Shown here: positions 25,209-39,454 of the stretch, piece by piece
How positions within the stretch are numbered: the first letter of the stretch is position 1
Layout: each line of letters starts with the position of its first letter
Assembly: GCA_027317865.1 (NCBI GenBank)
Contig: DAHVQG010000014.1
Span: forward strand, 12,645 to 76,644
Direction of reading: 5' to 3'
Source: Bdellovibrionales bacterium
Lineage (GTDB): Bacteria; Bdellovibrionota; Bdellovibrionia; Bdellovibrionales; UBA1609
DNA: 64,000 nt
The notes under the pieces: generated by a model
Seen by the model: the letters and a program-made list of their open reading frames with translations, nothing else
Database searches by the model: none
What the model was told of the DNA's origin: nothing
Position numbers and translations under genes: made by a program

Positions 25209-25285
25209 CGGGGAGTGGCTCAGCCCGGTAGAGCATCTGCTTTGGGAGCAGAGGGTCGCAGGTTCAAATCCTGTCTCCCCGACCA
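25209..25285 (+). tRNA. tRNA-Pro(TGG)
   Basis: CGGGGAG acceptor stem, anticodon arm TCTGC-TTTGGGA-GCAGA, GGTTCAAATCC T-arm, encoded CCA. Confidence 0.97.
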
Positions 25286-29385: not shown

Positions 29386-29928
29386 TCACTCATACCTAAA
29401 TTTGGCTATGATTTCTGTGCCTCCGATGGCGGTTGCGACAGCCCCCAAAGACCAAAACACAAACCATGTCCATGCCAAGTTTGAACCGCCTAATAAAAAT
29501 ACAACTTCAGAAATCAAGACAATCGGAACAAACTGAGCCCACTTTGCGCGACGAAGAAGTTTAAATTCTTCTGGGAGCATGACGAGCCAAGCGACTAAAA
29601 TCGTGCCTACGAAAAAAAATGACCCGCATAATGCAGCACACATAGGGTCACCCAATTTTCGAAACCACAACATAAGACCAAGCCCCCCGGTTGGCGTGAT
29701 CCCGAACTGCGGGCAACCAAACAAAGAAATTAACCCGACGAATACATGAATTAGAACAAGCTTTGCAAAAACCCGTGAAGCCTTCGGGTTTGCATCGGGC
29801 TTCACACATTCATAGCTTTTGCAATCGCACATAATACATTCACAAACTTTTTGCGTAAGCTCAGGCGGTGGCTCAACATGAGCATTTAAAAACTGCTCGA
29901 ATTCCGTCTTTGACGAGTCGTATTTCAT
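29386..29928 (-). CDS. Putative membrane anti-sigma factor, Cys/His/Met-rich
   Basis: ATGA overlap with the ECF gene; CECIMCDC..YEC, H-x10-CPQFG, MCAALCG; about four TM helices. Confidence 0.7.
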   Translation of the reverse strand: MKYDSSKTEFEQFLNAHVEPPPELTQKVCECIMCDCKSYECVKPDANPKASRVFAKLVLIHVFVGLISLFGCPQFGITPTGGLGLMLWFRKLGDPMCAALCGSFFFVGTILVAWLVMLPEEFKLLRRAKWAQFVPIVLISEVVFLLGGSNLAWTWFVFWSLGAVATAIGGTEIIAKFRYE

Positions 29929-30518
29929 TTGCTAAATCCACTTTTCAGCTTACGAAGTGCCCGGCTTACAATTTGCCGTGTATTCGATTCGGTCGTGTTG
30001 AGTTCCTTCGCAATATTGAAAAACGAATTTTCGTTTAAATATCGCGATTCGACCGCCGTCCGTTCACGATCCGACAGAGTGCCAAGTCGGGCCTTCATTT
30101 CTGTTTCAAGCAGCGATGTGCCCTTGATCGCCGTAGCAGAATCGGCTGCGATATCAGACGAATAATCGGCCGCCGCGGCTGGAATTAAAGTCTCGACCGT
30201 ACTGTCGCCATGAGCCACTCCATCCAAATACACATTATCAACTGATCGCGACCGTTGCTTGAAAAAATCAGCCATTACAGTTCGGATTATCGAAAAAATC
30301 CATGGAGCAAACGGCAGCTCAGTCTTGTAAGTTCCACGGCTTTTATGTAATTTCATAAAAATCTGCTGGAACAGATCATCGCCCTGGGCACGGTTTTTCA
30401 CGCGCGGTAAAATATAACCATAAACCCGGGGCGCGTAACGCTTGTACAATTCCAAAAACGCTCCTTGATCGCCATTTTGATAGGCTCGCATCAAATCTTC
30501 GTCCGAGATCTTGTCCAT
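29925..30518 (-). CDS. ECF sigma factor
   Basis: SDEDLM..YQ.GD..AF..LY.RY, DDLFQ.IF.KLH, W.F.I.R; region 4 ESNTRQIVSRALRKL. Confidence 0.92.
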   Translation of the reverse strand: MDKISDEDLMRAYQNGDQGAFLELYKRYAPRVYGYILPRVKNRAQGDDLFQQIFMKLHKSRGTYKTELPFAPWIFSIIRTVMADFFKQRSRSVDNVYLDGVAHGDSTVETLIPAAAADYSSDIAADSATAIKGTSLLETEMKARLGTLSDRERTAVESRYLNENSFFNIAKELNTTESNTRQIVSRALRKLKSGFSK

Positions 30519-30525
30519 TAAGGGT

Positions 30526-30552
30526 TACGGCTCCAGAGTTATTTTTGTGACA
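30526..30552 (-). promoter_or_regulatory. Putative ECF autoregulatory promoter (leaderless)
   Basis: Minus strand TGTCACA-N16-CGTA, with -10 element 7 nt upstream of the ECF ATG. Confidence 0.6.
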
Positions 30553-30581: not shown

Positions 30582-30607
30582 TGTCACAAAATTCATATCA
30601 AACAGTA
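30582..30607 (+). promoter_or_regulatory. Putative ECF-dependent promoter of the cus operon
   Basis: TGTCACA-N15-AGTA; shares TGTCACAAAA with the divergent promoter. Confidence 0.5.
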
Positions 30608-30645
30608 TTTCACTATACGCTGACCGCAATGGGAGGTCCAGATTT

Positions 30646-31911
30646 ATGCGTTTTCAAACGCAATTCCTAAGTATTTTATGTGGCTTAACTCTTGCGTTTA
30701 TTGCCCAAGTGTCTCAGGCTGGCACGCTGACGCTCGACAAGGCAATAAGCCAGGCTATCTCGGCAAATCCTCAAATCGCCGCCGCATCAGCTGAAGCCCA
30801 TGCCGAACACGAAGCCATTAAATCGAACTATTCGCTCGACAATCCGACGGTTGGCTTTTCTACCAGCCACAATATGGGTTTGATGCAAGTTCAAATGGGA
30901 CCAATGAAGGTCTGGTCAGTCAGCCAAAAATTTAAATTCCCAACTGAATATTTTCTTAGCGGCAAAGCCCAGACCGAAAGGGCCAAAGCTGCCGAGCAAC
31001 AGTATTTGGCGAAAATGCTTGAAGTGAGACGCGAACTGATCACCCGCTATTATCGTCTTTTTGCGGTGAATCAGATCCTGGCATTACTCAAAGCACAGCG
31101 TGAAACGTTGCAAGAAGTGGCTCGAAGCGCCGAAGCCCGCCATGCAGTTGGCACCGTTCCTCAACAAGATGAACTCAAGGCGACCGAAGAACAAACGATG
31201 GTCGACGCCGAACTGATTTCAGAAAAAGAAAAACAAACCGCCGACGAAGCAAAACTCAATTCGATAATGGCAAAACCCGCGAACGCGCCGATACAACTGC
31301 CGAGCGATGATCTGCCGGTTCCTGAACTTACGGTATCGCCGACACAAGTTGAACAAATGGCGAAAACCGACTCACGTGAGATAAAGGCCGCGCAATTTTC
31401 AGTAAGTTCAGCGGCAACAGCAAAAACCCTTAGCGCATGGAAATACGCTCCCAACTTCACAGTTTCATATCATCAAGCCTATGACACAAATATAAATGCG
31501 TATTCTTTTGGCATCGGAGTTTCAATACCACTTTGGTTTTTTGCAAAACAAAATGGCGATTACGAAGCGGCGTCAGCGCGGGCCGTGCGTGCGCAAGCGA
31601 ATCTTGAAAATCTCCGTCTTGCAACTTCTAGCGAAGTTCGATCATTAGTGTTCGATGTAACGTCTCACGCGCAACTTCTAAAAATTTACAAAACATCGTT
31701 GATACCACAGGCCTCAACCACGTTGAGCTCTTCACGAAGCGCCTATCGCGCCGGTCGTACTCAATTTTTGGAACTACTCGACAGCGAGCGATCTCTCTAC
31801 GCAGTACGAGTCGGCTACTATCAAACGCTCTCTCAATACATTGATGACTTGGCAAAACTTGAGTCCATTGTTTGCCACTCGGTGAGTACACTCCCGAAGG
31901 AGGGTATGTGA
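30646..31911 (+). CDS. TolC-family outer-membrane efflux channel (CusC/CzcC-like)
   Basis: Signal peptide; LTLDKAI..A...NP, SIPLWF, AYRAGRTQFLELLDS; Met-rich loop NMGLMQVQMGPM. Confidence 0.88.
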   Translation: MRFQTQFLSILCGLTLAFIAQVSQAGTLTLDKAISQAISANPQIAAASAEAHAEHEAIKSNYSLDNPTVGFSTSHNMGLMQVQMGPMKVWSVSQKFKFPTEYFLSGKAQTERAKAAEQQYLAKMLEVRRELITRYYRLFAVNQILALLKAQRETLQEVARSAEARHAVGTVPQQDELKATEEQTMVDAELISEKEKQTADEAKLNSIMAKPANAPIQLPSDDLPVPELTVSPTQVEQMAKTDSREIKAAQFSVSSAATAKTLSAWKYAPNFTVSYHQAYDTNINAYSFGIGVSIPLWFFAKQNGDYEAASARAVRAQANLENLRLATSSEVRSLVFDVTSHAQLLKIYKTSLIPQASTTLSSSRSAYRAGRTQFLELLDSERSLYAVRVGYYQTLSQYIDDLAKLESIVCHSVSTLPKEGM

Positions 31912-32960
31912 ATAAAACTGCAATTTTTGTGTCTTTTATCTTTTTATTGCTAGTCGGTTTGTTTGGTCTAACAAAAAAGGGTCATGCGGCCATGTCGATG
32001 ACTAACAACTCAGGAAAAACGATAATGCCGATGCATAAGTTGTCGATGCCAATGCCGACGCAAAAGACAACAGAGCCGTCAGGTCACGCCCCCTTTCATT
32101 TGTCGCCTAACGCGCAACAGCTAATCGGCGTTAAAATCGGTTGGGTGATCAAGCGAGATTTAAATAAAAACATAGATGCCGCTGGGCGCATCGCCTATGA
32201 CCCTGAGCTATATACGGCGCAAACCGAATATATCGAGGCCTTGCAGGAACTTGAACAAGTTAAAAATTCACCACTCTCTGAGGTGAAAGAGTCGGCGCGC
32301 CAAATGGTAAATTCAGCTCGACTGCGACTCAAAATATTAGGTTTGTCAGATCGGCAAATCGCGCACCTACATAGCAGAAGTGCTGAAACCTCGAACTTAC
32401 TTCTGACGAAACCGCATCAACATGTTTGGGTTTATGCTGACATTTTCGAGATGGATCTACCATATGTAAAACCAGGCGAGCGCGCAGACATATCGGCTGA
32501 TTTTTTAGAAGGCAAAACTTTGATTGGAAAAGTTATATCGGTAGATCGTGTGATTGATACAAAATCACGCACAGCGCGGGCTCGAATTCTGGTAAATGAA
32601 GGCACAAGTTATTTGCGCCCCGGCTCATACGTCAACGTAACTATTCACGATCCAACTGGAGACCAAGTTGTTGTACCGTTTGATGCCATTTTAAACACTG
32701 GCAAAGCGGCTTGGGTTTTCGTTGTCAAAAGGCCCGGAATTTTCATTCCGCGAAAAGTAGGAATAAAATTTTATGACGGCAACAATGTTGCAATTGCTAG
32801 TGGTTTGACGAGTGGCGAGAACATTGTAACAAGTGCGAATTTTCTAATCGACTCGGAATCGCGGCTCAAAGCAAGCGAGTTTAGCCGTGCTTCGCAAACG
32901 CCATCGTGTCCGAAAAATCAGCATTGGGATACGGCAATGACCATGTGTATGCCAAACTAG
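31908..32960 (+). CDS. cusB: Efflux RND periplasmic adaptor (CusB-like)
   Basis: PELYTAQ.EY, ARLRL..LG, VWV.ADIFE.D, LRPG, ANFLIDSES; Met-rich N- and C-termini. Confidence 0.85.
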   Translation: MNKTAIFVSFIFLLLVGLFGLTKKGHAAMSMTNNSGKTIMPMHKLSMPMPTQKTTEPSGHAPFHLSPNAQQLIGVKIGWVIKRDLNKNIDAAGRIAYDPELYTAQTEYIEALQELEQVKNSPLSEVKESARQMVNSARLRLKILGLSDRQIAHLHSRSAETSNLLLTKPHQHVWVYADIFEMDLPYVKPGERADISADFLEGKTLIGKVISVDRVIDTKSRTARARILVNEGTSYLRPGSYVNVTIHDPTGDQVVVPFDAILNTGKAAWVFVVKRPGIFIPRKVGIKFYDGNNVAIASGLTSGENIVTSANFLIDSESRLKASEFSRASQTPSCPKNQHWDTAMTMCMPN

Positions 32961-32976: not shown

Positions 32977-35900
32977 GTGATTGATAAAATCATCGAATTT
33001 TCAGCGCGAAACCGATTTTTGATATTCCTCCTCGTAATAATGGCAACAGTGGCCGGTTGGTTTTCGCTCAAAAATTTGCCGATCGATGCGCTGCCTGATT
33101 TATCGGACACACAAGTGATCATTTACACAAAATGGGATCGCCCGCCCGGCATAATCGAAGATCAGGTTACCTATCCTATAATCAGTGCTATGCTTGGCGC
33201 TCCTAGAGTAACGGACATACGCGGAATTTCAACTTTTGGAACATCGTATGTTTACGTAACTTTTAAAGACGGTACAGATCCTTATTGGGCCCGCTCACGA
33301 ACACTCGAATATTTATCGAAAATTTCGGCTGAGTTACCCGCAAACGTTCATCCTGAACTTGGTCCAGACGCCACGGGAGTCGGTTGGGTCTATGAATATG
33401 CGCTTGTTGATAAATCAGGTAAACATTCGCTCGCTGATCTTCGCACACTTCAAGACTGGGACTTGCGCTATCAATTGGAATCTGTTCCCGGAGTTGCTGA
33501 AGTCGCGGCAATTGGCGGATATCAACTTCAATATCAAGTGAAACTTAATCCGAACGCGCTTTATTCATATCATATCCCGATAGAACAAGTCGTTCATGCC
33601 ATTCAGCAAAACAACAATGAAGTCGGGGCACGAGTTCTCGAAATATCAGGAGCCGAGTACATGATTCGCGGCCGCGGTTACATCAAAAACCGCCACGATC
33701 TTGATAATACGATTTTAGCCTATAAAAATGGCACTCCCATTTATATTAAAGACGTCGGCACTGTTACATTTGGACCTGAAATGCGCCGCGGAGTAGCCGA
33801 TTACGACGGTGAGGGCGACGCGGTTGGCGGCATTGTGATTATGCGCTACGGGGCCAATGCCGAACATGTTATTGCCGCCGTCAAAAAAAAGTTAAACGAG
33901 ATCAAGAAGACACTCCCAAAAGGTGTTCGAATTGTTACAACCTATGACCGCTCAGATCTCATTCATCGCGCAATTAATACTTTAAAACACGAATTAAAAC
34001 TCGAAATATTTGTCGTTTGTCTTGTCATTATCGCTTTTCTATTGCACTTGCCGAGCGCCATTGTTCCCATTGTAATTTTGCCGCTCGCAGTATTGATCAG
34101 TTTTGTTCCGATGTACGAACTACACGTTTCAGCCAATATTATGAGCCTTGGCGGTATAGCAATTGCCATCGGAGCGATGGTCGATGCCGCCATAGTTGTC
34201 GTAGAGAACGTTTACAAACACATCGAACATTTTGAAAGCTCAGATAAAGTCATCATTCACGCAATCAAAGAAGTTGGCCCCTCTAGTTTTTATTCGCTTC
34301 TCGTAATTGCGGTTTCATTTTTGCCCATTTTTGCTTTGAAAGGACAAGAAGGCCGACTTTTTAAGCCGCTTGCCTACACTAAAAATATATCGATGTTTGT
34401 CGCAGCCGTTCTTAGTATCACCCTTGCGCCGGCGCTTCTTTTGGCACTTTCACGTATTAGAAAACTTAAAATATTTGGATACCCTATTGGCGAAAAGATC
34501 AGTCAAACACGCCCTGAAGAAAACCATCCCATCAGCAGGGCATTGTTTCGTTTTTACGGGCCAGTTGTGCATTGGGCTGTCGATCACCGCAAACAAGTGC
34601 TTTTCGGCGCTCTCACGATTTTACTTTTGACAATTCCCGCCTATTTGAAACTCGGTTCAGAATTTATGCCGCCCCTTAACGAAGGCACAATTCTCTACAT
34701 GCCCGAGACCCTCCCGGGAATTTCAATCGCGTCCGCACAAAATCTTCTTGAACGGGAGGATCAAGTCCTGATGTCGTTTCCGGAGGTTAAGCGTGTTTTT
34801 GGCAAATCGGGCCATGCCGACACGGCGACAGACCCCGCTCCGCTGTCGATGACAGAAACGACAATTATGCTCAAACCCCGAAATGAATGGCCGTCGCAAA
34901 TGACCTGGAAGAAACTCATCGCGCAAATGGATGCCAAAATGAATTTTGCCGGAGTAACGAATTCGTGGACGATGCCGATCAAAAATCGAGTCGACATGCT
35001 CACAACGGGCATTCGCACTCCTGTGGGAATTAAAATCTTCGGCGACAACCTTAAGCAAATTCAAAAAATCGGTGTTGAGCTCGTTCCAGTTCTTCAAAAA
35101 GTTCGCGGGACTCGAAGCGTGTTTGCCGAAAGAAGTACCGGTGGGTATTATCTTGATTTCGACTTTAATCGTGAGCGTCTGGCCCGGTACGGGCTCAACA
35201 TCGCGCAAGCACAAAATGCTTTGATGACAGCTGTCGGCGGAAAAGATATTTCACAGACAATTCAAGGCCGCGAGCGTTTTCCAATTAATGTGCGCTATTT
35301 TGCTGACTATCGAAGTAATATCAATTCTCTTCGGCATGTACTAATTGCCACGCCTTCGGGGGCGCAAATTCCGATGGGTGAAGTGGCCAATATCAGAATG
35401 GTGAGCGGTCCGGATATGATTCGCGACGAAAACGGGCGGCTTGCGAGTTACGTTTATATCGATGTTACGGGGCGCGATATCGGTCGATATGTAGCAGCGG
35501 CAAAAAGGGCAATCAGCAAACATTTGAAATTACCAACCGGGATGACCATAGAGTGGGCCGGTGAGTATCAAAATATGTCTCGCGCAGATAAAACTCTTAA
35601 AGTTGTTCTGCCGCTGACCCTTCTTGTTGTCATTTTACTGTTATTCGCCAACACGAAATCATGGGCAAAAACAACGATTATATTAATGGCGGTTCCGTTT
35701 TCAGCAGTCGGGGCTGTGTGGCTTCTTTTTCTCCTTCATTACAATATGAGTGTCGCAGTTTGGGTCGGGTTAATTGCGCTTCTCGGTGTAGACGCCGAAA
35801 CCGGAATTTTTATGCTTCTCTACCTCGATCTTGCCTATAATGCCGCTTATCAAAAGGCGAATCATGAAGGCCGATTGCTGTCCTTTGAAGAATTACGAGA

Positions 35901-36180
35901 TTCGATTTATGCGGGAGCGGTCCAGCGTGTTCGCCCCAAAGTGATGACTGTCGCTTGTCTTTTAATGGCTTTAACACCGGTTATGCTTGAAGGAACTGCG
36001 CACGCGGGCGCAGATGTTATGAAACGTATTGCTGCGCCCATGCTCGGCGGAATTGTTACATCATTTGCACTTGAGCTTGCGGTATATCCGGCCATTTTTG
36101 CAATTTGGAAGTGGAACTTTGTTTTAAAGCGTAAGCGAAAGCTTATTGATAATATTGACGATAGGTTTGATAAGCAATGA
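32977..36180 (+). CDS. cusA: CusA/SilA-type heavy-metal RND efflux pump
   Basis: DALPDLSDTQV, EDQVTYP, GPDATGVGW, GAMVDAAIV; Met triad EFMPPL, PLSMTET, WTMPIK typical of Cu(I)/Ag(I) pumps. Confidence 0.95.
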   Translation: MIDKIIEFSARNRFLIFLLVIMATVAGWFSLKNLPIDALPDLSDTQVIIYTKWDRPPGIIEDQVTYPIISAMLGAPRVTDIRGISTFGTSYVYVTFKDGTDPYWARSRTLEYLSKISAELPANVHPELGPDATGVGWVYEYALVDKSGKHSLADLRTLQDWDLRYQLESVPGVAEVAAIGGYQLQYQVKLNPNALYSYHIPIEQVVHAIQQNNNEVGARVLEISGAEYMIRGRGYIKNRHDLDNTILAYKNGTPIYIKDVGTVTFGPEMRRGVADYDGEGDAVGGIVIMRYGANAEHVIAAVKKKLNEIKKTLPKGVRIVTTYDRSDLIHRAINTLKHELKLEIFVVCLVIIAFLLHLPSAIVPIVILPLAVLISFVPMYELHVSANIMSLGGIAIAIGAMVDAAIVVVENVYKHIEHFESSDKVIIHAIKEVGPSSFYSLLVIAVSFLPIFALKGQEGRLFKPLAYTKNISMFVAAVLSITLAPALLLALSRIRKLKIFGYPIGEKISQTRPEENHPISRALFRFYGPVVHWAVDHRKQVLFGALTILLLTIPAYLKLGSEFMPPLNEGTILYMPETLPGISIASAQNLLEREDQVLMSFPEVKRVFGKSGHADTATDPAPLSMTETTIMLKPRNEWPSQMTWKKLIAQMDAKMNFAGVTNSWTMPIKNRVDMLTTGIRTPVGIKIFGDNLKQIQKIGVELVPVLQKVRGTRSVFAERSTGGYYLDFDFNRERLARYGLNIAQAQNALMTAVGGKDISQTIQGRERFPINVRYFADYRSNINSLRHVLIATPSGAQIPMGEVANIRMVSGPDMIRDENGRLASYVYIDVTGRDIGRYVAAAKRAISKHLKLPTGMTIEWAGEYQNMSRADKTLKVVLPLTLLVVILLLFANTKSWAKTTIILMAVPFSAVGAVWLLFLLHYNMSVAVWVGLIALLGVDAETGIFMLLYLDLAYNAAYQKANHEGRLLSFEELRDSIYAGAVQRVRPKVMTVACLLMALTPVMLEGTAHAGADVMKRIAAPMLGGIVTSFALELAVYPAIFAIWKWNFVLKRKRKLIDNIDDRFDKQ

Positions 36181-36236: not shown

Positions 36237-36947
36237 TTGAATAAGAAGATTTTGCCTTGCATTTTGAAACTTTGCTCGGGAGTTATTGGCCGAAACCCAT
36301 GCTTGGGTATTCAAGTCAAAGTTCCCGATGTAGAACAAAGAGTTCTCACCGCTTCAGAAGTTGAAGTCTTTCTTCAAAACGCCAGACTCACGAACCATAG
36401 GTTTTATCCTGTATGGGCGATGGCGCTCGGAACAGGAATGCGATCAGGTGAACTTTTTGCGCTCCTATGGACCGACATCGATTTTGACGGACGTACGATT
36501 TCAGTCACGAAACAATGGACAAATAAAAATGGAACGTGCCCGACAAAGACGCTTAGAAGTCGCGTGGTACCGATCTCAGATGATTTGCTTAAGTTTCTAA
36601 AGGAACTGAAACTAAAGCGCGGAGCTAAATACGACTGCGTGCTACCGCACCTCCCAGAGTGGGAAAACGGTCAACAGGCGCAGGTCACAAAGGATTTTTG
36701 CACGGCTTTAGGAATCACGCCGATCAAGTTTCACGATCTTCGAGCAACGTTTATTACAAGCTTATTGTCTCGTGGCGTACCGCTCGCTCAAGTTATGGCC
36801 ATCGTTGGTCATAACCAGATCAAAACCACAAATGGCTATCTTAGAAGAGCCGGAGTGGATGTTCTAGGAGCGACAAATAAGCTCGGCTACAAACTCCCAA
36901 GTGATGTGGCTGGAGCACAAGTCTTATCCATCGTACAAAATCAATGA
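36237..36947 (+). pseudogene. Tyrosine integrase, 5'-truncated (catalytic domain only)
   Basis: TGMRSGEL, FHDLRATF, GH....TT..Y retained; homology begins around RNPC; arm- and core-binding domains missing; no clear SD. Confidence 0.75.

Positions 36948-39378: not shown

Positions 39379-39454
<76 letters not shown>

Follow-up and report, generated by a model that had tools for sequence, protein, structure and literature searches.

A conserved ECF sigma/membrane protein pair as a candidate Cu(I)/Ag(I)-responsive switch beside a CusCBA-type efflux operon in Bdellovibrionales

In a 64,000-nucleotide stretch of DNA from a Bdellovibrionales bacterium (assembly GCA_027317865.1, contig DAHVQG010000014.1; the whole stretch is referred to below as the window), two coupled minus-strand genes encoding an extracytoplasmic function (ECF) sigma factor and a small four-helix membrane protein were found in divergent orientation to an operon for a CusCBA-type heavy-metal efflux pump. 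This sigma/membrane module is genuine, conserved, so far unnamed and tied to copper defence, and it varies the theme of ECF sigma and anti-sigma factors rather than founding a separate kind of system. An even chance is given to the reading that the pair senses Cu(I)/Ag(I) and switches the divergent CusCBA operon, with the membrane protein as the anti-sigma factor.

Results

The sigma/membrane pair and the divergent pump operon

The sigma gene (29925-30518, minus strand) codes for a 197-residue protein in which the Pfam domains Sigma70_r2 (residues 24-91, 2.9e-12) and Sigma70_r4 (residues 145-192, 7.6e-11) were recognised, and the TIGR02937 model gave 80.8 bits against a cut-off of 42.9. A protein of about 200 residues with regions 2 and 4 only corresponds to the definition of the ECF sigma factors (sigma-70 group 4). 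The comparison of its sequence profile with the PDB revealed the generic ECFs SigW, sigma-H and RpoE as the closest solved structures, with CnrH ranking below them at an E-value of only 2e-6. The translated protein has zero cysteines and no C-terminal extension. The TGA stop codon of the sigma gene shares bases with the ATG of the membrane-protein gene (29386-29928, minus strand, 180 residues) in an ATGA overlap, and a 127-bp spacer separates this sigma operon from the pump operon on the plus strand.

The pump operon begins with the gene of a CusC-like outer-membrane channel (30646-31911, plus strand; Pfam OEP, 6e-36), followed by those of a CusB-like periplasmic adaptor (31872-32960, plus strand; Pfam HlyD_D23, 9.3e-26) and a heavy-metal pump of the resistance-nodulation-division (RND) type (32977-36180, plus strand). 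The pump reached 1105.6 bits with the TIGR00914 model (cut-off 701) and was closer to the chains of E. coli CusA (1009 bits) than to the Zn pump ZneA (494 bits). The methionine triad of CusA was also kept, with M575, M625 and M674 all aligning as Met to the residues which we take to be numbered M573, M623 and M672 in the E. coli protein. A model score above the cut-off, CusA as the closest pump and the three-Met site together mark this protein as a member of the CusA type. The open reading frames scanned in about 22.9-40.4 kb of the window included no two-component, MerR or CsoR gene, in agreement with the first-pass annotation, which had described cusCBA as having no two-component or MerR regulator nearby.

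An unnamed family of membrane proteins

No match for the membrane protein was obtained in Pfam or NCBIfam. A homology search based on a word index returned only the protein itself and an exhaustive search was required; phmmer then revealed 412 cluster representatives at E<=1e-3, of which 141 reached E<=1e-10. When 139 members were compared singly with Pfam at E<=1, they pointed to no common family, the best being TauE, matched by three members. All names attached to the members read 'hypothetical protein', as did those of the nearest clusters in a protein atlas, where Bdellovibrionota was the commonest phylum. The family profile matched 228 of the 401 sampled genomes of this phylum, and 118 of the 203 genera.

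Four residues, C72, C97, C101 and W159, were conserved in 100% of the 139-sequence alignment, and F13, L46, P48, K56, L69, Q74, G76, G93, G102, F105 and E121 in at least 90%. The motifs highlighted in the first-pass annotation are all present in the membrane protein: H61 followed after 10 residues by C72-P-Q-F-G (codons at 29701-29715, minus strand), L85-M86, and M96-C97-A-A-L-C101-G102 (codons of C97 to G102 at 29623-29640, minus strand). The emphasis put there on CPQFG and C-x3-C-G proved well placed, as these motifs form the invariant core of a large unnamed family, with C72 invariant and P73, Q74, G76 and G102 conserved in 85%, 99%, 91% and 98%, respectively. In an alignment of 143 sequences, the values for the N-terminal segment were 96% for F13, 92% for L46 and 95% for P48, and H61, M86 and M90 were conserved in 73%, 59% and 80%, respectively. 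One 328-residue protein (P0121) is a natural fusion of an ECF sigma factor and a family member; because it lacks C-x3-C as well as the end of sigma region 4, it probably represents a degenerate or mis-assembled gene.

The AlphaFold model obtained with the family alignment as input (predicted local distance difference test score, pLDDT, 89.2; predicted template modelling score, pTM, 0.77) contained membrane helices at residues 50-71, 94-116, 129-146 and 153-179, and hydropathy agreed on four. The earlier description of a divergent ECF sigma gene coupled to a protein of about four transmembrane segments was thus confirmed by the Pfam and TIGR02937 matches, the ATGA overlap, the model and the hydropathy. 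The short N-terminal segment ahead of the first membrane helix (about residues 1-49) was modelled with three short helices (5-15, 22-31 and 42-46), and a small helix (85-90) was placed in loop 1. The family mean of Lys plus Arg was 3.5 in loop 2, 2.5 at the C-terminus, 0.9 in loop 1 and 0.2 in loop 3, and loop 1 contained on average 4.0 Cys, Met and His residues. Applied to these values, the positive-inside rule predicts a cytoplasmic location for both termini and for loop 2, which would place C72 at the periplasmic end of helix 1 and C97 and C101 at the periplasmic start of helix 2, all three at the periplasmic face of the membrane.

No relationship to a solved structure was detected. The Foldseek comparison of the model with the PDB gave 0 matches at E<=0.001, VIA-align in its wide mode found generic helical bundles only (best Z 6.7), and the sequence profile of the membrane protein met nothing in the PDB under an E-value of 0.8.

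The five-cysteine insertion

The five cysteines within 13 residues ahead of helix 1, to which the first-pass annotation had drawn attention, are present at residues 29-41 (CECIMCDCKSYEC; codons at 29806-29844, minus strand). The proposal that this stretch is part of the sensor was not sustained. The columns of residues 29-38 are gaps in 99% of the 143 members, the same-genus homologue among them, and this ten-residue insertion occurs in one of the 143, the window protein itself; in the model, it is disordered, with pLDDT below 50 at residues 32-40. Because the insertion is unique to the window protein, the five-cysteine stretch cannot be the sensor of the family. It is a lineage-specific addition to the N-terminal segment predicted to be cytoplasmic, and it may or may not bind metal. 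No cysteine ahead of helix 1 was found in 121 of the 143 members, one was found in 16 and two in four, the window protein has five and a 183-residue member (P0095) has six. The six cysteines of P0095, likewise in the cytoplasmic N-terminal segment, were gained independently and with no insertion.

Pairing with ECF sigma genes

The genomic context was examined for 56 family genes in 56 loci, 13 of them from 41 relatives, 39 from the scan of the phylum and four extra ones from complete genomes of three genera. The 39 phylum-scan loci comprised 24 of the 30 best-scoring and 15 others, mostly from long contigs or complete chromosomes. In 48 of the 52 loci of the first two sets and in all four extra loci, together 52 of 56, the family gene is immediately preceded by an ECF sigma gene of the same orientation, in line with the treatment of the sigma factor and the membrane protein as a unit in the first-pass annotation. 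Among the four unpaired loci, one (L018) begins at a contig edge, and L086, L088 and L097 contained no match to the sigma profile anywhere in the locus.

With starts set by the longest open reading frame, 42 of the 48 sigma/membrane junctions overlap, 21 of them as an exact ATGA, the window included; the choice of start codon may have created the larger overlaps. With 52 of 56 genes adjacent and 21 ATGA junctions, the pair has the arrangement looked for in an anti-sigma gene, which adjoins its sigma gene and is co-transcribed with it. No third gene conserved alongside the pair was found across the loci.

A conserved promoter motif at the sigma and metal genes

The 127-bp spacer contains a 9-bp inverted repeat (TTTGTGACA ... 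TGTCACAAA), which reads as a pair of back-to-back -35 elements. On the minus strand, the predicted ECF-type promoter of the sigma operon (30524-30552) consists of TGTCACAA, 15 nt and CGTAAC, a reading supported by its recurrence in relatives. The predicted promoter of the pump operon (30582-30609, plus strand) consists of TGTCACAA, 14 nt and AGTATT, and is followed on the plus strand by a GGGAGG ribosome-binding site and the ATG of cusC. Its -35 element matches TGTCACAA perfectly and stands back-to-back with the sigma promoter, as in relatives, and a genome of the same genus carries CGTATT at the equivalent pump-side position. A sigma-70-like site was looked for on the plus strand of the spacer and not found. 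The -10 element of the sigma promoter (region 30516-30530, minus strand) stops 5 nt short of the ATG, which makes a leaderless sigma mRNA probable. The same tight spacing between the -10 element and the ATG of the sigma gene is seen in several relatives.

The motif was present at the sigma gene in 25 of the 39 phylum loci and, as read by eye, in 11 of the 12 loci of relatives that contain a sigma gene. A search for TGTCACA-N15-17-CGTA revealed 62 matches in the 39 phylum loci, compared with 0-2 per shuffle in 20 shuffles, and 51 of the 62 were located within 400 bp of the sigma/membrane pair. Over 51 loci, 85 matches of the motif were collected, 76 of them identically spaced, with the consensus TGTCACAAa ... 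tCGTAwT. The gene 3' of the 62 matches was the sigma gene in 25 cases, an OEP channel in nine (and one more by Pfam), a Haem_bd gene in five, the gene of a 215-residue secreted protein in two, and an RND and a multicopper oxidase gene in one each; 16 were unannotated and three were other genes. In the 2.65-Mb genome of the window, a relaxed form of the motif gave seven matches against three in a reversed control, and the two at this locus were the only ones of the seven flanking sigma or metal genes.

Accepted on these sequence comparisons, a conserved ECF-type promoter of the form TGTCACAA-N15-CGTA faces the sigma operon and the neighbouring metal genes. It is very likely that throughout the family the sigma factor directly drives the neighbouring operons, and likely, with somewhat more reserve, that it directly drives the pump promoter of the window.

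Copper genes near the family

Most of the large RND proteins in the loci belong to the copper type. The CusA Met triad is kept in 25 of the 32 RNDs of at least 900 residues, and these adjoin the sigma/membrane pair; among the rest, five are Czc-like (DFG...D) and located farther from the pair, and two are of another type. In 25 of 52 loci, an RND with the Met triad is located no more than 8 kb from the family gene, and in 27 of 52, parts of a pump are found within 2.5 kb. The Pfam analysis of 123 neighbours in the loci of relatives identified CBA pumps, with adaptors that often carry a heavy-metal-binding domain (HMBD), as well as cupredoxins, two multicopper oxidases, CopA with CsoR, heavy-metal-associated (HMA) proteins, YHS and MerR.

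The neighbourhood comparison of CPQFG homologues suggested in the first-pass annotation yielded mostly copper-linked surroundings. A reference metal gene was present in 44 of the 56 loci. One of these 44, L059, was counted via a distant RND fragment, and its pair is flanked by two cation diffusion facilitator (CDF) transporters. Softer links to metals were noticed in four more loci, with zf_CopZ and DsbD in L086 and a secreted protein with YRCPM...MPHCGG in L085, L090 and L094.

Candidate copper regulators elsewhere in the genome

The system had been described in the first-pass annotation as standing in place of CusRS. This holds locally only, because a CusS-type kinase is encoded on another contig of the genome. 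The gene of this heavy-metal-type sensor kinase, the only one in the genome, is located on contig C40 (G000:C40:130873-132237; L099:9796-11283, minus strand) and is paired with that of an OmpR-type regulator; its neighbours are O-antigen ligase, TauE and DsbA-like genes, not metal pumps. The genome also holds one CsoR, next to a CDF transporter, and no CueR was found in it.

Discussion

The anatomy of the pair, its family, the conserved gene pairing and promoters and the copper-gene surroundings were observed; how the sigma factor is bound, which signal acts and how release occurs are inferred and can be pictured as follows. In the resting state, the N-terminal cytoplasmic segment of the four-helix protein would tether the sigma factor at the membrane. 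C72, C97 and C101, together with the neighbouring Met/His loop, would form a thiolate site at the outer leaflet that captures Cu(I) or Ag(I) from the envelope. Occupancy of this site or metal-driven thiol chemistry would alter the packing of the helices and release the sigma factor, which would then transcribe its own operon and cusCBA from the two back-to-back TGTCACAA-N15-CGTA-type promoters. The four-helix membrane protein is probably an anti-sigma factor. For the sensing of Cu(I)/Ag(I) by the cysteine triad, the probabilities for and against appear about equal. A wider proposal may be put forward only tentatively: the family would form a phylum-wide class of four-helix anti-sigma factors, with the window protein as its founding example, that sense Cu(I)/Ag(I) directly at a tri-cysteine site in the outer leaflet. 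In Bdellovibrio-like bacteria, the leading part in envelope copper regulation would then fall to an ECF sigma factor, not to CusRS or CueR, and in the window protein the cytoplasmic five-cysteine cluster, inserted into the sigma-binding segment, would sense metal in the cytoplasm as well, which would let a single protein of 180 residues monitor both compartments.

Several observations do not favour the proposed Cu(I)/Ag(I) switch. In the window itself, the -10 element of the pump promoter reads AGTA, with A for the C of the CGTA of the family motif, the membrane protein has Arg at position 90, where Met is found in 80% of the family, and it lacks the loop histidines frequent in relatives. Eight of the 56 loci (L069, L072, L079, L095, L096, L114, L115 and L116) have no metal neighbour, and the three of them from genera g43 and g46 also have no promoter motif within +-8 kb; the cysteine motifs are retained in these three. 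The co-occurrence of the family with CusA-type pumps in the 401 genomes is moderate, with both present in 102, the family only in 126, CusA only in 46 and neither in 127; the resulting odds ratio of 2.2 is only descriptive because related genomes are not independent. The kinase on contig C40 scored above the cut-off of the TIGR01386 model for CztS/SilS/CopS-type kinases (346 bits, cut-off 292.55). Finally, cysteines facing the periplasm are often oxidised, and the triad could be structural or redox-active instead of metal-binding.

An alternative is a sigma/anti-sigma switch whose cysteine triad senses a broader thiol-reactive envelope stress (Cd, Hg, Zn, Au, oxidants or hypochlorite), the Cus pump being one of several outputs. 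This explanation has a minor but real probability. A functional analogue, NrsF, responds to chromium and cadmium via two conserved cysteines (available part of PMC3511200), and the apparent targets in the family differ, including CDF transporters (L059), zf_CopZ, DsbD and thioredoxins (L086) and an RND of another type (L064 and L067); moreover, no strong CusA match was found in 126 of the 228 family-positive genomes. The commonest neighbours are nevertheless specific for copper, namely the Met-triad CusA of 25 of 52 loci, multicopper oxidases, cupredoxins and CopA with CsoR, and no Czc-like RND in the loci adjoins the pair. It is unlikely that the anti-sigma role is correct and the cysteines serve only in disulfides or helix packing, with the signal arriving by another route such as a periplasmic partner or regulated proteolysis. 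Membrane anti-sigma factors are most commonly inactivated by such proteolysis, cysteines in the periplasm are usually disulfide-bonded, and the periplasmic loops of the family are tiny (about 25 and 7 residues). Against this stand the lack of a conserved third gene with the pair across the loci and the number of invariant cysteines, three being odd for disulfides alone, next to a loop rich in Cys, Met and His.

The membrane protein might also be a sigma-dependent metal handler (a chaperone, a reductase or a small transporter) rather than an anti-sigma factor, with the sigma factor controlled in another way. This could account for the lack of a known anti-sigma domain in the Pfam and NCBIfam searches, for a cytoplasmic segment of only about 49 residues and for the three loci carrying the membrane gene with no sigma gene in the locus. 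It appears decidedly unlikely in view of the position of the gene directly after the sigma gene with a stop/start overlap in most loci, the conserved N-terminal cytoplasmic helices before helix 1, which are the typical layout of membrane anti-sigma factors, and a sigma factor devoid of cysteine and of a sensory extension. Control of cusCBA mainly by a distant CusS-type two-component system, with the ECF pair regulating only itself or other genes, is very improbable. The kinase above the TIGR01386 cut-off, its OmpR-type partner on contig C40 and the imperfect cusC-side -10 element speak for it; the kinase adjoins no metal genes, the -35 element on the cusC side is perfect and arranged as in relatives, and the spacer yielded no sigma-70-like promoter on the plus strand.

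Among the described systems, the one closest in logic to the proposed sigma/anti-sigma switch is SigF-NrsF (ECF16; NrsF is DUF1109, PF06532), in which an ECF sigma factor is likewise co-transcribed with a polytopic membrane regulator. In Caulobacter crescentus, the conserved cysteines of NrsF are needed to keep the sigma factor inactive in a metal-stress response (available part of PMC3511200), and NrsF is described with six helices and periplasm-facing cysteines (available part of the ECF classification supplement). The window family differs by its four helices, seen in both the model and the hydropathy, by one cysteine plus C-x3-C in place of two separate cysteines, and by its promoter and regulon. 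An assignment of the family to NrsF/DUF1109 was rejected, as PF06532 matched 0 of 139 members at E<=1 and nothing in the genome of the window, and hhalign, by which the family profile was compared with that of seven NrsF proteins from this order, gave a probability of 5%. Eight of 61 genomes of the order carry true NrsF genes separately.

The output resembles that of CnrYXH of Cupriavidus metallidurans (ECF291), where an ECF sigma factor drives an adjacent heavy-metal RND CBA operon in response to periplasmic metal (available part of PMC7826278). The Cnr system consists of three proteins, with a single-pass CnrY and a periplasmic sensor CnrX, and senses Ni and Co, whereas in the window a single four-helix protein with almost no periplasmic domain stands beside a CusA-type pump. 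With no third conserved gene and a four-helix partner instead of a single-pass one, the pair was not assigned to the CnrYXH type. In CorE and CorE2 of Myxococcus xanthus (ECF238, formerly ECF44), copper is sensed on the sigma factor itself (available parts of PMC6851896 and PMC10141476). CorE has no anti-sigma factor and bears a cysteine-rich extension, whereas the window sigma factor contains no cysteine and has a membrane partner.

In E. coli, CusCBA is induced by CusRS in response to Cu(I)/Ag(I) in the envelope. CusRS consists of a histidine kinase and a response regulator, neither of which was found among the scanned open reading frames near the cus operon of the window, where a candidate sigma/anti-sigma pair is located. 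The zinc-binding zf-HC2 anti-sigma (ZAS) proteins are characterised by the motif H-x3-C-x2-C. A cysteine-rich cytoplasmic sigma-binding segment would be a point of likeness, confined to the insertion of the window protein; an assignment to ZAS/zf-HC2 was not retained, as there was no zf-HC2 match, H-x3-C-x2-C was not seen and no other family member carries the insertion.

Copper and silver RND pumps are textbook targets of two-component systems, and Cnr, the only well-studied heavy-metal RND pump system under ECF sigma control, requires a separate periplasmic sensor protein. The sigma/membrane pair most likely switches the CusCBA pump on, and this scheme of control is common in Bdellovibrio-like bacteria and so far undescribed. 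If the proposal is true, a single small polytopic protein that is both sensor and sigma holder would be the most compact envelope metal switch described, a function would be given to a family annotated only as 'hypothetical protein', and the control of copper defence in many predatory and related bacteria would be explained. If the mechanism holds, the TGTCACAA-N15-CGTA promoter and the tiny sensor could serve as a simple orthogonal Cu/Ag-responsive genetic part. In the literature covered, which includes part of the classification supplement, neither this family nor an ECF-controlled Cus pump was found described. No ECF group matching the window sigma factor was found in the text of PMC7826278 or in the available part of the supplement, and such a group could be in the remainder. 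CorE and CarQ are named as copper ECFs in the available parts of two reviews, where no system like that of the window is mentioned (PMC6851896, PMC10141476).

Other genes in the loci

A second recurrent target module was noticed in 9 of 52 loci and in L117. It consists of a secreted protein of about 215 residues ending in FNFM[IV]H[YFL], followed by a secreted HMA protein with GMVCAFCA. The 215-residue protein, encoded in L083 (6743-7390, minus strand), L089 (7060-7692, minus strand), L066 (8812-9474, plus strand) and seven more loci, had no Pfam match and looks like an outer-membrane beta-barrel. Another divergent promoter target, always on the plus strand, is the gene of a secreted protein of about 160 residues in L085 (9431-9931), L090 (9384-9887), L093 (9531-10007) and L094 (9395-9868). 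This protein ends in YRCPMVKKKW...HNPY...MPHCGG, gave no Pfam match at 1e-3 and probably binds metal in the periplasm.

The RND proteins of L064 (3491-6640, plus strand) and L067 (2786-5917, plus strand) have N-Y-H at the positions of the Met triad and the sequence AIGELVDD in helix 4, and represent a heavy-metal RND type not matched to a known one. The HMBD domain, common in the adaptors of relatives, was not found by Pfam in the window adaptor, which has a Met-rich N-terminus (MPMHKLSMPMP) and a C-terminal tail rich in Cys, Met and His (CPKNQHWDTAMTMCMPN).

Directly 3' of cusA, a 236-residue open reading frame (36237-36947, plus strand) contains only the catalytic Phage_integrase domain. The region of 25-39 kb is bordered by genes for tRNA-Pro and tRNA-Ala, located at 25209-25285 (plus strand) and 39379-39454 (minus strand), and may be the remnant of an integrated island with the sigma/cus module.

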